Below are positions 57,658 to 62,927 of a stretch of DNA of 64,000 bases, one piece after another. How positions within the stretch are numbered: the first letter of the stretch is position 1; each line of letters begins with the position of its first letter. The position numbers and the translations under genes are program-made. A model generated the notes under the pieces. That model was not told the DNA's origin. It worked only from the letters and a program-made list of their open reading frames with translations, and ran no database searches. Location of the stretch: the sequence record NC_052654.1. One strand, written 5' to 3'. This DNA comes from Escherichia phage vB_EcoM-Ro121c4YLVW.

Positions 57658-58536
57658 ATGAAAGGTATTATTTTGGCTGGAGGAAGTGGAACCCGCCTTC
57701 ATCCGGTAACACGCAGCGTGAGCAAGCAATTGCTCCCTGTGTATGACAAACCCATGATCTACTACCCTTTATCGGTATTGATGTTGGCTGACATTAAGGA
57801 TATCTTAATCATCACCACACCAGGCGATCAGGAAGACTTTGAGTATCTTCTCGGAGATGGGTCTATGTTTGGGATAAAACTCACTTACGCAATCCAATCC
57901 GAGCCACGAGGTCTTGCGGACGCTTTCATCATCGGTAAAGATTTTATCGGAGAAGACTCTGTTGCTCTTATTTTAGGTGACAACCTATTCTTCGGACAAA
58001 GCTTTGGTAAACTACTGATTAACGCCAGTGAGATGGTAGATGTTTGGGGCGGAGCTTGTATCTTCGGGTATTTGGTGAAAGATCCTGAACGATTCGGTGT
58101 GGTTGAATTTGGGAGTAATCGTCAAGCTATTTCTATTGAAGAGAAACCTGAAAATCCTAAATCAGATTACGCTGTCACAGGTTTGTATTTCTATGATAAC
58201 TCTGTTGTTCAACGTGCATTAGAAGTAACCCCTTCCGCGCGTGGAGAACTGGAGATCACAGATATCAATCGCAGCTACCTCGAAGACAGGAAGTTACAAG
58301 TGGAAGTTCTCGGACGAGGATTTACTTGGCTTGACACAGGAACACACGCCAGTCTGATGGAAGCTGGTCAATTCGTGCAGACTATTGAGAACCGGCAAGG
58401 ATTGAAGATTGCGTGCCTGGAAGAAATTGCTTTCAAAAAAGGGTGGATTTCTTTAGAGACTTTGGTGTATCATGGAAACTCACTGAAGAAAACAGAATAC
58501 GGGCAATACCTACTCAAATTAGCGGAGAGAAAATGA
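57658..58536 (+). CDS. rmlA: glucose-1-phosphate thymidylyltransferase
   Basis: N-terminal [16 protein letters not shown] signature. Confidence 0.9.
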
Positions 58537-59099
58537 AAGTAGAAAAAACAAAAATTGAAGGTGCGGTAATTATCAAACCAGACGTTTATAAAGATGATCG
58601 TGGTTTCTTTTTAGAAACATATAATGAACAAAAATACGAAGATATTATTGGTAGACAAACTTTCGTTCAAGATAACATGTCTAAATCAAACTTCGGTGTT
58701 TTGCGAGGAATGCACTTTCAAACAAATAATCCGCAAGGTAAGCTTGTTCGTTGTGTAAGTGGGGAAGTATTGGATTTCGCTGTAGACCTACGTAAAGATA
58801 GTCCTACTTACGGTGCTTGGGACGGTGTTGTTCTTCGTGCACGACACCATACACAGTTCTGGCTTCCACCTGGTTTGGCACATGGTTTTATAGTGTTGAG
58901 TATGGATGCTATCTTCGAATACAAATGCACAACTCCATACGACCCTTCCAGCGAACAAAGTTTACGTTGGGATGATCCTGATATAGGGATTGATTGGGGC
59001 TTCGATATGATTTTTGACGAAGATTTTAAACCTATCTTATCAACAAAAGATGCAATGGCTAAGTCTTTTCAACAGCTACGTAGCGAGGGTGTATGCTAA
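58533..59099 (+). CDS. rmlC: dTDP-4-dehydrorhamnose 3,5-epimerase
   Basis: [11 protein letters not shown] and LRGMHFQ motifs; ATG at 58533 overlaps rmlA stop. Confidence 0.85.
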
Positions 59100-59935
59100 C
59101 ATATCTGGTATTGGGCGGTAATGGACAACTGGGACAAGCTTTACGTAAAGTGGCTCCTTCAAATGTATCTTTAATTTATCCTAAAGAACGTGTAGATATT
59201 ACAAATTTTGAAGCTGTGCGAAACGCTATTGTTGAAGATTATGTAGATGGTGTTATTAATTGCGCTGCTTATACGGCTGTAGATAAAGCAGAACATGATT
59301 TTGCTACTGCTTTGGCTGTTAATTCCTACGGCCCTGCAAACATTGCAGCAGTGTGCAGTAAACTTAAAATTGATTTTGTGCATATTTCTACAGACTATAT
59401 TTTTAATTACTCTCATCCTATTTTTGAAGATACTACACCTAACCCAATAAACAATTATGGGTATACGAAAGAACTTGGTGAAAAAATGGTGCGAGGAGTT
59501 AACCCAAATGCATATATTATTCGAACAGCCTCGGTATATAGCGAATTTGGAAATAACTTTCTAAAAACCATGTTGTCTCGCTATAATGATGGACAACGTG
59601 ATTTTATTATTGTTGCTGATCAGTTCTCTTGTCCAACATATGCTCCAGATTTAGCAGAAGCTATTTTTGAAGTATTAAAAACAGGTTGGTCAAGGTCTGT
59701 TAAGACTTACCATTTTGCAGGAAGCCATCTTATTTCTTGGGCGGAGTTTGCGGAAAAGATCTTGACACAGATGCCAGAACCTGTTAAGATATCGGCGGTA
59801 TCAGCTTCAACCTATAATGCTCCAGCAGCACGTCCGGTGAAGTCACAATTAGTAACCAGTCACTATCTTACAAAATCAGATTTAAATAAAGGTATTGAAC
59901 GGTCTTTAGCAGTATTACTTAATAAGGAGAGGTAA
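59093..59935 (+). CDS. rmlD: dTDP-4-dehydrorhamnose reductase
   Basis: LVLGGNGQLGQAL and HISTDYIF motifs. Confidence 0.85.
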   Translation: MLTYLVLGGNGQLGQALRKVAPSNVSLIYPKERVDITNFEAVRNAIVEDYVDGVINCAAYTAVDKAEHDFATALAVNSYGPANIAAVCSKLKIDFVHISTDYIFNYSHPIFEDTTPNPINNYGYTKELGEKMVRGVNPNAYIIRTASVYSEFGNNFLKTMLSRYNDGQRDFIIVADQFSCPTYAPDLAEAIFEVLKTGWSRSVKTYHFAGSHLISWAEFAEKILTQMPEPVKISAVSASTYNAPAARPVKSQLVTSHYLTKSDLNKGIERSLAVLLNKER

Positions 59936-60895: not shown

Positions 60896-61654
60896 ATGGG
60901 AAATAAAACCGCAGCTAAAACACAACGGCAGAAACTGGCTAATTCAGCAAAGATTGAAAGCCGTTATGCAGCAAAAGCGGTAGGTAATGACGATTACCGT
61001 TTAGATGAATTTATGCCTGAAGGGGACCAAAATAAGATTGTTCAAAGCATGATTTGGAATGATCTGACTGTTGTAAATGCTCCGGCAGGGACTGGTAAAA
61101 CCTCTGTTGCTTTATGGAAAGCTTTGCAGATGCTTCGTTCAGGAGACTTCCGTAAACTACTTTTTATCAAGAACCCTACTGAAGTCGGAGATGACCAGAT
61201 TGGTTTCTTGTCTGGGGATAAAACAGATAAACTAGCAGCACACTATGAATCTACAAAACGTATTTTCCAGCAATTCATGACAGCCAACAAATTGGAAAAC
61301 GATATTGGATCAGGTAAGATCGAATTGAATATTCCTAACTATTTGTTGGGGGCTACCCTGGATAATACAATCGTCATTATTGACGAAGCACAACTCATGT
61401 CAACAGAAACACTTAAACTTCTTATTGAACGTGCAGGTATTAATACGCATGTTATTGTATTAGGCGATGTTCGCCAGACATATGCAATTAAAAAACGTAG
61501 CAATGGTCTGCATCAAATTTTGGAACTTTTATATCCAGAAAATGAAGAAGGTGTTCGTGAGCCAATTGTAGATTTTATTGGATACGTTGAACTGACAACG
61601 GACGATAATAAACGTGGACGTTTGTCTAAACTGATTACTGAAGTGTTTATTTAA
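60896..61654 (+). CDS. phoH: PhoH-like ATPase
   Basis: Walker A APAGTGKTS, Walker B VIIDEAQ; ATG at 60896 with SD AAGGAG. Confidence 0.8.
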   Translation: MGNKTAAKTQRQKLANSAKIESRYAAKAVGNDDYRLDEFMPEGDQNKIVQSMIWNDLTVVNAPAGTGKTSVALWKALQMLRSGDFRKLLFIKNPTEVGDDQIGFLSGDKTDKLAAHYESTKRIFQQFMTANKLENDIGSGKIELNIPNYLLGATLDNTIVIIDEAQLMSTETLKLLIERAGINTHVIVLGDVRQTYAIKKRSNGLHQILELLYPENEEGVREPIVDFIGYVELTTDDNKRGRLSKLITEVFI

Positions 61655-61686: not shown

Positions 61687-62190
61687 TTGATGGGTGTAGC
61701 AACAATAGCTATCGGAAGAAGCGGTATAGATGAGTGCTATCAAACGGGACTCGTAAAACCTAACGAATTTCGTCAAATTTGTGTAAACCATATTGAAAAA
61801 GAGATTGCTCTTACTTTAGAGAATATGACCCTCCGAGATAAACTGGAAATGTTTAAATGTTGGTGTCTAGGAGAAGATTGGCTTTTAAACCATTTTCAAG
61901 AACTTTCTGATAGTAAAGAAAGCTTGTTTGATTGTATAATAGGAATAGCTGGCTCCGATCCTAGCCTTCTGCACATAACAGAAGAAGAGGCGAAGTTACT
62001 GTTCTTAAGTAATTTGTTTAATAAGAAAGCACTGCTTGTTCGTGATTGTAGTGATCTTCTTAATAACCCGCTCGCAACGTCTGATCAAATTTTTGTTGAC
62101 AAAGAGACACTACGTGCGATAGAATACATCTGCAAATATGTGAATGGCGGGAAAGCGGTTCTTAAAACATTAACAGAGGAGGAAGAATAG
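61687..62190 (+). CDS. hypothetical protein
   Basis: 167 aa ORF upstream of HslV-like gene. Confidence 0.5.
   Translation: MMGVATIAIGRSGIDECYQTGLVKPNEFRQICVNHIEKEIALTLENMTLRDKLEMFKCWCLGEDWLLNHFQELSDSKESLFDCIIGIAGSDPSLLHITEEEAKLLFLSNLFNKKALLVRDCSDLLNNPLATSDQIFVDKETLRAIEYICKYVNGGKAVLKTLTEEEE
62096..62125 (+). promoter_or_regulatory. possible internal sigma70-like promoter upstream of HslV-like gene
   Basis: TTGACA, 18 nt, TAGAAT inside 3' end of gene 61687..62190. Confidence 0.3.
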
Positions 62191-62882
62191 TGACGACAAT
62201 TATTGCAACCAAAAATAAGATTTTGAGTGACGGTAAGGTAACTTTTGGTGGACGTGTAGATTCTATTAATTTCAAAAAGGTCCGAAAAATTGGAGATTAC
62301 CTTGTAGGTGGTGCTGGTCGTCTGACCTCCGTGCTTTCTTTCTTTCAATGGTTTGAACAAAATCTACAGTGCGAAGCAGCACGTGATGCTGTCCCTGGTT
62401 TGATGATTCACTCTGATCCAGATAAAGAAGATGAAGAGTTTATTGCACTTGTTGTTCATCCAGACGGACGTATTTTCCTGCACGAAGGTAATAACCCAAC
62501 ACGTGCATATCCGATTGATGAAGAATATTATGCGGTAGGAAGCGGGTCAGACTTTGCTTTAGCTGCTCTTGATGCAGGGGCAACACCAGAACAGGCTATG
62601 GAAGTAGCTAAAAAGCGAGATGCTTTTTCTGGTGGTGAAACATTTATTGAAGAACAAGACGAGATTATTGAATTAACAGATGATGATTTAGAAAACTTCT
62701 CCAAAGAAGAATTGATCAATCTTTTGAAATTCGGTAATCCCTACGGTGAAGAAGAACCTCGTAACGTGGCAGGTAACGAGGCGGATACTGAAGAAAAATC
62801 TGTTGCAGAAAACAACTTGACTTCTAAATCTGAAAATATTAATCTCGTAAATGTGGCGGATTTCGAAGGAACCGCTATTTAA
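62190..62882 (+). CDS. HslV/ClpQ-like Ntn-hydrolase protease with acidic C-terminal extension
   Basis: N-terminus MTTIIA (Thr after initiator), KKVRK, GGAG and GSG segments align by eye with E. coli HslV; 230 aa. Confidence 0.65.
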   Translation: MTTIIATKNKILSDGKVTFGGRVDSINFKKVRKIGDYLVGGAGRLTSVLSFFQWFEQNLQCEAARDAVPGLMIHSDPDKEDEEFIALVVHPDGRIFLHEGNNPTRAYPIDEEYYAVGSGSDFALAALDAGATPEQAMEVAKKRDAFSGGETFIEEQDEIIELTDDDLENFSKEELINLLKFGNPYGEEEPRNVAGNEADTEEKSVAENNLTSKSENINLVNVADFEGTAI

Positions 62883-62888
62883 CAAACT

Positions 62889-62902
62889 GCCCCTTCGGGG
62901 GC
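62889..62902 (+). other. GC stem-loop after HslV-like gene
   Basis: GCCCC-TTCG-GGGGC. Confidence 0.3.
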
Positions 62903-62927
62903 ATTTCTTAAACATAGGAGATTAATA

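Follow-up and report, generated by a model that had tools for sequence, protein, structure and literature searches.

What would a virus gain from a proteasome-like chamber of its own? Proteasome homologues have been catalogued in phages but none has been characterized. The question is raised here by a 64,000-nucleotide stretch of DNA from Escherichia phage vB_EcoM-Ro121c4YLVW (NC_052654.1; hereafter the window, to whose positions coordinates refer), which carries on its + strand, at 62190-62882, a gene for a 230-amino-acid (aa) proteasome-type protease composed of a catalytic core and a C-terminal tail. Our main new result, for which no earlier description was found, is that such tails are shared with ClpP-fold proteases encoded at the syntenic locus of other phages. 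The reading that we favor, at a probability of roughly 55%, is that the protein is an accessory, chambered threonine protease that is independent of HslU and uses its tail to recruit a partner or substrate.

The basic identification of the gene is not new. The complete open reading frame (ORF; 62190..62882, + strand, 230 aa, GTG start, TAA stop at 62880-62882) appears in the ORF list exactly as first proposed and is identical to the RefSeq coding sequence HOV53_gp078. Both RefSeq and PHROGs use the name 'peptidase HslV family', and depositors have chosen 'putative ATP-dependent protease subunit', 'putative proteasome component', '20S proteasome' or 'nucleophile aminohydrolase'. Phage proteasome homologues are the subject of a bioinformatic catalogue (Fuchs et al. 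2021; PMC8665760), the only systematic description that we found.

The similarity of the protein to HslV and the proteasome is far beyond chance, and it is a member of this superfamily, whose Ntn hydrolases MEROPS classes as T1-type. The Pfam model PF00227 (Proteasome) matches with 25.6 bits (gathering score 22.4, E=1.1e-5) and PHROG 1040 matches with E=1.6e-63, in agreement with the original prediction, made from the sequence alone, of an Ntn (N-terminal nucleophile) hydrolase of the proteasome family. A phmmer search of the PDB retrieves HslV of T. maritima at E=4.9e-9, and thirteen PDB HslV sequences are found at E values of 5e-9 to 3e-3. An AlphaFold2 model based on 39 homologues has a predicted local distance difference test score (pLDDT) above 90 over residues 1-155 and displays the alpha-beta-beta-alpha Ntn fold; a Foldseek search with this model returns a probability of 1.0.

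The catalytic core comprises residues 2-155 (62193..62654, + strand) and includes Thr2, Asp14, Lys30, G41-A42-G43, G117-S118-G119 and R143-D144-x-x-S147-G148-G149. In an alignment of the 39 homologues, whose identity to the query is 26-80% and among which are tail-less forms of 139-186 aa, residues M1, T2, T3, I4, D14, K30, G117, S118 and G119 are invariant, and G41-A42-G43 and D144 are nearly so. T2, D14, K30 and G117-S118-G119 correspond to Thr1, Asp17, Lys33 and Gly-Ser-Gly of the proteasome (numbering as cited by Fuchs et al. 2021; PMC8665760). The KKVR, GGAG and GSG segments that had been likened to E. coli HslV do align with it. The segment R143-D-A-F-S-G-G149 resembles what we take to be the Asp166/Ser169 motif of 20S beta subunits; a fragment query against solved beta subunits gave no usable alignment for this equivalence. 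At the aligned place E. coli HslV has GDICIYTN.

Beyond the core lies an extension of 75 aa (residues 156-230) that contains 27% Asp plus Glu and has a net charge of -15. An acidic extension had been predicted, and its presence is borne out; it is longer than the expected ~60 aa and is not uniform, being made of a conserved two-helix motif followed by a variable disordered stretch. The proximal part, residues 156-181 QDEIIELTDDDLENFSKEELINLLKF (62655..62732, + strand), was delimited from the homologue alignment and the AlphaFold2 model and consists of an acidic linker and the motif, whose helices are predicted at residues 164-169 and 172-181 with pLDDT ~90. All tail-bearing homologues have in common the pattern [L/I]-T-x-E-x-L-x-x-[F/M/L]-[S/T]-[K/R]-E-[E/Q]-L-[L/I]-x-[L/M]-[L/I], which spans residues ~162-181.

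The distal part, residues 182-230 (62733..62879, + strand), is acidic, variable and predicted to be disordered (pLDDT 44-56). Column conservation is 0.12-0.23 over residues 191-230, compared with 0.65-0.87 for most of the core. The length of this region differs greatly among homologues: it is nearly missing in P0059 (183 aa), others carry additional domains of 100-200 residues, and in Vibrio and Aeromonas phages it forms a distal helical domain that ends in a helix-extension-helix-like motif. The distal tail seems to be a place where lineage-specific domains are added. Pfam gave no match outside the core of the window protease, tail included. The metagenomic homologues P0061-P0071 (264-379 aa; locus L012, 5001-6140) have added a Cys-rich segment that contains Cys-x-x-Cys and a Trp-rich beta domain that ends W-[RK]-L-x-x-[AE]; neither the segment nor the domain has a Pfam match.

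A 40-position profile was built from the tail motifs alone and searched against 1.84 billion representative proteins. At E<=0.001 it matched 15 proteins, most of them family members with the motif at the expected position. A few are generic repeat proteins (P0138, P0139, P0144 and P0146) matched via a common 'S/T-K/R-E-E/Q-L-L' helix. Because such proteins also match, the short motif alone is not diagnostic, and the case for tail sharing therefore rests on long tail alignments. One of these is provided by the metagenomic protein P0142, which the profile matched at E=2.7e-5. Its N-terminal half is ClpP-like (PF00574, 31.4 bits, cut-off 20.2), and the tail of the HslV-like protein gp211 of Aeromonas phage 2L372D matches its last 144 residues with 87% identity (E=2e-85).

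Searches with tblastn revealed full-length ClpP-like proteins with the tail in Vibrio phage PWH3a-P1 and Pseudaeromonas phage KLEP7, and ClpP with the beginning of the tail in the group of the Vibrio cholerae phage ICP1. In these ClpP-like proteins the motif LT-x-E-x-L-x-x-x-S/T-K-E-E-L-I follows immediately after the protease core, in which the Ser and His are kept in the expected motifs. An alignment of 137 columns gives 43% identity (E=1e-27) between the tails of the ClpP-like protein of PWH3a-P1 (VPIG_00091) and the HslV-like protein of phage qdvp001, whereas no similarity was found between the two cores. With the PWH3a-P1 tail as query, 13 Vibrio phage records share the tail. In three records, from two phages, it follows a ClpP-type core. 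Of the remaining 10, nine are annotated as HslV-type or nucleophile aminohydrolase and one is unannotated. These 10 include VnaP, which has the same host species as PWH3a-P1 and a nearly equal genome size.

The loci that encode the two kinds of protease are also alike. In PWH3a-P1 the order is RNR-beta (ribonucleotide reductase) ... lysozyme - PhoH - 64-aa ORF - 153-aa ORF - ClpP-like protein with tail - two small ORFs - DNA ligase - rIIA. Phage qdvp001 has this same order with an HslV-like protein and tail at the protease slot, and the 153-aa ORFs upstream of the two proteases are 65% identical. ICP1 has the order lysozyme - PhoH - 210-aa ORF - 60-aa ORF - ClpP-like protein with tail ... DNA ligase. 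The core is of the proteasome fold in phAPEC8, phi92, qdvp001 and 2L372D and of the ClpP fold in ICP1 and PWH3a-P1. These alignments indicate that the catalytic chamber was exchanged in place during evolution and the extension was kept. Such an exchange would mean that the extension has a function of its own, one that is compatible with two unrelated chambered proteases.

The best NCBIfam model for the ClpP-like cores is 'head maturation protease, ClpP-related' (68 bits, below the cut-off of 120). ClpP-related head-maturation proteases are not known to need AAA+ unfoldases. Since the ClpP-like cores resemble this type, both kinds of core would come from lineages that are independent of unfoldases.

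Two observations were made on related loci. The 60-64-aa ORF between PhoH and the protease, which is 42% identical between qdvp001 and ICP1 (L003, 3328-3522; L011, 4276-4458), contains a similar helix motif, 'L-x-x-[Y/L]-S-x-E-E-L-F'. Aeromonas phage 2L372D (NC_048769) has two adjoining HslV-family genes (L002, 3432-3983 and 4001-4885). The first product, gp210 (183 aa), is tail-less and keeps Thr1, Asp and Lys, with Gly-Cys-Gly instead of Gly-Ser-Gly; the second, gp211 (294 aa), bears the tail. The two may form a two-subunit particle or may be separate proteases.

Although the core is of the proteasome/HslV type, as the label given to it in the original prediction implies, the protein is not an HslV orthologue. 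It shares 27% identity with E. coli HslV in an alignment of 157 residues, and the NCBIfam equivalog models for HslV, NF003964 and TIGR03692, which have cut-offs of 137 and 157.75 bits, score it at 32.2 and 31.4 bits, respectively. Moreover, the AlphaFold2 model has one long helix at residues 45-67 and no further helix before the strand at residue 84. Helix H2 and the pore loop of HslV appear in this model to be replaced by a 16-residue acidic loop with a net charge of -5 (residues 68-83, VPGLMIHSDPDKEDEE; 62391..62438, + strand), in which D81 is nearly invariant among homologues. In the HslV proteins of E. coli and H. influenzae, the residues named in the pocket that receives the C-terminal tail of HslU include Phe54, Phe57, Ala79/Lys80 on H2, and Gln114 (PMC6429459). 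Because the helix that bears Ala79/Lys80 is predicted to be absent, part of this pocket is predicted to be gone from the phage protein, in which Phe lies opposite Phe57 and Leu lies opposite Phe54.

The absence of an HslU-like ATPase nearby had also been predicted, and this holds well beyond the immediate neighborhood. A tblastn search with E. coli HslU found no HslU in the window or in positions 7722-151194 of a 99.9%-identical reference genome, and all ORFs in the remaining 7.7 kb of that genome are of 261 aa or less. The genes that adjoin the protease gene are PhoH and ORFs without assigned function, with no HslU-type ATPase among them. Loss of H2 is described as a trait of the phage-associated PPH group (proteasome homologue of phages and their hosts) and the related RPC group, and a long acidic pore loop is described as a mark of BPH (Betaproteobacteria proteasome homologue), which is free of unfoldases, whereas the pore loop of HslU-regulated HslV is very short (Fuchs et al. 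2021; PMC8665760). On the strength of the model, we place the protease in the compact, H2-less phage branch of the family, akin to the PPH/RPC group. It is probably neither a client of HslU nor a decoy, and is better regarded as a phage-branch proteasome homologue than as HslV.

The gene directly upstream of the protease gene encodes a protein of 166 aa that is predicted to be all-helical (61690..62190, + strand; PHROG 14834), which is a candidate partner or regulator of the protease. The GTG start of the protease gene shares 1 nucleotide with the TAG stop of this ORF (TAGTG), an overlap that indicates translational coupling. The upstream ORF is found in 132 phage records, the same number as have a protease homologue of at least 60% identity (62+1+6+63), and the two genes adjoin in every record in which coordinates were compared. 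Three divergent metagenomic contigs encode proteases with 55-61% BLASTP identity to the query, together with an upstream ORF that is 30% identical. There, the ORF lies directly 5' of the protease gene or one small gene off, in a block of glutaredoxin - lysozyme - PhoH - ORF - protease, and the downstream genes differ. No earlier description of this conserved, coupled gene was found.

The model of the 166-aa protein has a pLDDT of 91; it has no informative structural neighbor and does not resemble the proteasome fold. The corresponding position in Vibrio phages is taken by another ORF, of 153 aa. Homology between the two was not shown (hhalign probability 0.2% in the single-sequence and 1.7% in the profile-profile comparison), and an hmmsearch comparison of the E. 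coli-phage ORF with the Vibrio ORF gave E>0.03. The other constant neighbor is the gene for a PhoH-like P-loop ATPase (60896..61654, + strand, RefSeq annotation), which is always one or two genes 5' of the protease gene. The order lysozyme-PhoH-ORF-protease recurs in Aeromonas and Vibrio phages, in ICP1 and in metagenomic contigs.

That this cassette is accessory is suggested by phage VEcB (Justusliebigvirus, NC_052663; L009, 1501-2304), in which a deletion has produced an in-frame fusion of PhoH (~112 aa) to the protease from residue ~63. The C-terminus of PhoH, the upstream helical ORF and the catalytic Thr1 are removed, and the flanking genes are intact. Since VEcB was nevertheless isolated as a plaque-forming phage, the cassette is dispensable for plaque formation. 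The RefSeq name of the fusion product is still 'peptidase HslV family'.

These findings can be brought together in the following scheme. Removal of the initiator Met would expose Thr1 as the nucleophile, and the subunits would assemble into a ring-shaped, self-compartmentalizing particle that has no need of a dedicated unfoldase of the HslU type. The C-terminal extension would be an autonomous module of acidic linker, two-helix motif and variable tail that is able to serve a core of either the proteasome fold or the ClpP fold. The module would give the protease a role specific to the phage, and the likeliest means are the docking of a partner or substrate or control over access to the chamber. 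The coupled 166-aa helical protein would be the first candidate for such a partner, and the protease would act as an accessory factor rather than as a head-maturation enzyme.

Several points weigh against this scheme. At the level of the motif, the profile of the window tail matches the tails of ICP1 and PWH3a-P1 weakly, with 4-6 bits, and the link from the window tail to the ClpP tails runs via the HslV-like tails of Vibrio and Aeromonas phages. The synteny of PhoH and the upstream ORF with the protease gene may reflect only shared phage ancestry. The VEcB deletion is known from one record only and may have arisen by misassembly or as a lesion acquired in the laboratory. The literature found on family members consists of the bioinformatic catalogue and genome notes and holds nothing experimental; on the proteases of phAPEC8, phi92 or ICP1, likewise, nothing functional was found. 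Finally, proteobacterial hosts generally possess HslU, so the phage enzyme could make use of the host protein.

If this last possibility is true, then HslV-like rings of the phage protease dock on host HslU, and the tail chooses the targets to which ATP-dependent degradation is diverted. We consider such pairing, which the original prediction had put forward, to be unlikely. As described above, the phage core has diverged far from E. coli HslV and is predicted to lack H2 and with it the Ala79/Lys80 portion of the HslU tail pocket, and the acidic loop at the position of the pore loop follows the unfoldase-free pattern of BPH. A further argument comes from sister phages, in which a ClpP-fold core with a homologous tail occupies the same locus. 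Clp ATPases dock on ClpP through contacts other than those between HslU and HslV, and a mechanism that depends on HslU is therefore unlikely to be common to both cores.

A narrower version of the favored scheme names the partner. The tail might dock the coupled helical protein or the PhoH-like ATPase, and the result would be a regulated protease that is independent of HslU and ClpX and has an interchangeable chamber. This more specific proposal is tentative, and we give it low odds. Another ATPase was considered for such a role, the AAA protein HOV53_gp174 (379 aa; PF00004 E=8.7e-7, PHROG 2376), which is encoded outside the window at NC_048196 132886-134025 (L008, 31164-32303), ~105 kb from the protease gene in the reference record. 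It has a Walker A sequence GTKGSGKT, a Walker B sequence DEFD and a C-terminal domain of no recognized type; no canonical pore-loop motif was seen by eye. Relatives of this ATPase occur widely among large Firmicutes myophages and jumbo phages. Most are in phages of Enterococcus, Bacillus, Staphylococcus and Lactobacillus, which are without the protease, and Vibrio and Caulobacter are outside the ten commonest host genera. This distribution is opposite to that of the protease family and, together with the lack of a visible pore-loop motif, makes HOV53_gp174 unlikely as a dedicated unfoldase partner.

A different proposal is that the protein is a proteasome-fold enzyme that does not degrade proteins at all. 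In this case it would carry out site-specific processing or act as a connectase-like peptide ligase or as an amidase on a small molecule or modified protein, and it might be a monomer or small oligomer. We regard this explanation as improbable.

Slightly harder to sustain is a morphogenetic role, in which the protease would act on head, scaffold or internal virion proteins and the tail would be a capsid-targeting signal of the HK97 type. Prohead proteases with C-terminal targeting tails are known, and a tail common to two protease folds would suit a shared role in docking on the capsid. The head-maturation model that the ClpP-like counterparts match best also points in this direction. However, the head and tail modules are more than 30 kb away from the gene, whose neighbors are genes of nucleotide metabolism, and a dedicated protease of the XkdF/S78_2 type (PF14550, E=1.4e-11) is already encoded between the portal and major capsid genes. 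S78_2 homologues are likewise present in ICP1, where the annotation is 'capsid protease', in 2L372D and in other phages with a tail-bearing protease. VEcB, furthermore, lacks the N-terminal catalytic half and yet forms plaques. Taken together, the gene location, the separate S78_2 protease and the VEcB deletion disfavor a role in head maturation. The S78_2 gene itself (NC_048196 63491-63970; L007, 11769-12248), between the portal and scaffold/capsid genes, bears the RefSeq name 'DNA methyltransferase', as do many related records, and this is probably a propagated mis-annotation.

Least credible is the suggestion, also made in the original prediction, that the protein is a non-catalytic decoy or poison subunit that disables HslVU of the host, either by titrating HslU or by joining HslV in mixed assemblies: phages do inhibit host proteases (T4 PinA acts against Lon) and the protein is very acidic (isoelectric point 4.35), but a decoy has no need of the catalytic residues that are invariant in homologues of as little as 26% identity, tail-less forms included, nor of the Ser and His retained by the ClpP-core counterparts, and the predicted H2 loss and 27% identity make co-assembly with host HslV improbable.

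The assignment of the gene start is supported by the flanking sequence signals. A ribosome-binding site, GAGGAGG, precedes the GTG start (62176..62192, + strand, as read from the sequence), and its GGAGG Shine-Dalgarno element ends 7 nucleotides 5' of the GTG. At nine homologous loci the start codon is ATG, GTG or TTG, followed in each by Thr-Thr-Ile and preceded by a good Shine-Dalgarno sequence. Because homologue starts always precede Thr-Thr-Ile in this setting, we conclude that the N-terminus is correctly placed. A Thr at position 2 permits removal of Met by methionine aminopeptidase, and E. coli HslV matures in this way. The proposal of an N-terminal Thr exposed after Met removal is therefore upheld by the conserved Thr-Thr-Ile, although the initiator codon is GTG and not ATG. 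Several GenBank records (P0023, vB_EcoM-Ro121c4YLVW and others) begin the product at the internal Met72 and give a protein of 159 aa. The deposited start overlooks the GTG, and the catalytic Thr is consequently lost from the annotated product.

A hairpin that resembles an intrinsic terminator (TGCCCC-TTCG-GGGGCA and a T-rich run; 62888..62910, + strand), found by terminator scan and in the sequence, begins 5 nucleotides past the protease stop codon. A match to a sigma-70 promoter, TTGACA-18-TAGAAT (11 of 12 positions; 62096-62125, + strand), sits within the upstream ORF ~65 nucleotides 5' of the protease start. It may be due to chance, since the region has 12 such sites in total compared with 11.1 in shuffled sequence. 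The protease gene is part of a long same-strand block for nucleotide metabolism and replication that includes genes for ribonucleotide reductase, ThyX, ligases, exonucleases, dTDP-rhamnose synthesis, glutaredoxin, lysozyme and PhoH. This position suggests early or middle expression.

A full dTDP-L-rhamnose pathway (homologues of RmlB, RmlA, RmlC and RmlD) is encoded immediately 5' of the glutaredoxin, lysozyme and PhoH genes. The genes are at 57658-59935 of the window and in an upstream gene (L001, 16658-19936), and several glycosyltransferases are encoded elsewhere in the genome. Together, they suggest sugar modification of DNA or some other target.

The window belongs to Phapecoctavirus (Stephanstirmvirinae), whose members are myophages of ~150 kb. 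The 4 kb around the protease gene are 99.9% identical to Escherichia phage vB_EcoM_Schickermooser and 99.4% identical to phAPEC8. Homologues of the protease are present in 232 phage records, and the host genera identified in the tblastn lists are all proteobacteria. Five records in these host listings are labeled 'Campylobacter phage' and are in fact E. coli-phage sequence. Records of this kind (B15, C3 and A145; MG065650, MG065656, MG065645 and others) carry a Campylobacter jejuni label and are 99.8% identical, or 100% at the protein level, to genomes of E. coli phages of Phapecoctavirus and Justusliebigvirus. It is likely that the host labels are wrong or that the lysates were contaminated.

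What takes this locus beyond routine annotation is a modular tail that is shared with ClpP-fold proteases at a conserved position, together with a conserved, coupled partner gene. The design that emerges is testable: a threonine protease core, a short helical docking motif, a lineage-specific distal module, a coupled gene and a natural core swap. The swap would mean that the biological role is defined by the tail and not by the chemistry of the core. E. coli phages allow direct tests of function, as does the well-studied ICP1, which would be a tractable alternative system. Should the partner or substrates turn out to be host defense or regulatory proteins, the family would represent a novel class of phage factors for take-over or counter-defense; PADLOC gave no defense or anti-defense match for the protease or its two flanking ORFs. 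Otherwise, the system would still inform the evolution of self-compartmentalizing proteases. If the tail does dock the helical protein or PhoH, this would be the first case of two unrelated chambered proteases used as swappable cartridges for one apparatus of targeting or activation, and the widespread phage PhoH might gain a function.

Among known systems, the archaeal and eukaryotic 20S beta subunits differ from the window protein in several respects. The latter is phage-encoded and much smaller, and it is without a propeptide, an alpha-subunit partner or, by prediction, H2. The BPH proteins (5ovs, 5ovu) are bacterial, are ~185-200 aa in length, keep both helices of the first pair and have no C-terminal extension. 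They form heptameric rings, whereas the window protein is known here from its sequence and a monomer model; a point of likeness is the acidic loop at the position of the pore loop. Relative to bacterial HslV (ClpQ; E. coli b3932, T. maritima 1m4y), the first hairpin of the phage protein is 4 residues shorter, an acidic loop takes the place of H2 in the model, RD..SGG stands where HslV has GDICIYTN, and a 75-aa extension is added at the C-terminus. The hslVU operon has no counterpart, since no hslU was found next to the phage gene or, in the search described above, elsewhere in the phage genome.

The ClpP-like proteases (VPIG_00091 of PWH3a-P1, the 'ClpP ATP-dependent protease subunit' of ICP1, and P0142) occupy the same slot in the lysozyme-PhoH-ORF-protease block. 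Their core fold and mechanism, with the ClpP-type Ser and His of PF00574, are unrelated to those of the window protein, and their tails have an extra C-terminal domain with a helix-extension-helix-like end that the window protein is without.

With the PPH and RPC proteins the window protein was compared by traits (published representatives WP_042125023.1 for PPH and WP_140207863 for RPC). The text of the catalogue, as searched, contains no conserved tail motif, ClpP sharing, coupled ORF or PhoH-linked locus. PPH proteins have ~140 residues and no extension; RPC proteins are reported from Proteobacteria only, and their extension is called an unknown domain (Fuchs et al. 2021; PMC8665760). Tail-less relatives of ~140 aa from Caulobacter and Rhizobium phages and metagenomes fit the description of PPH; the nearest tail-less relatives of the window protein have 139-146 aa and are 35-40% identical to it. 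PPH and RPC are Group I compact homologues that occur in tailed phages and lack H2. The window protein itself comes from a tailed phage and is predicted to lack H2, and it differs from PPH in its length of 230 aa, in which a core of ~155 aa is joined to the 75-aa extension.

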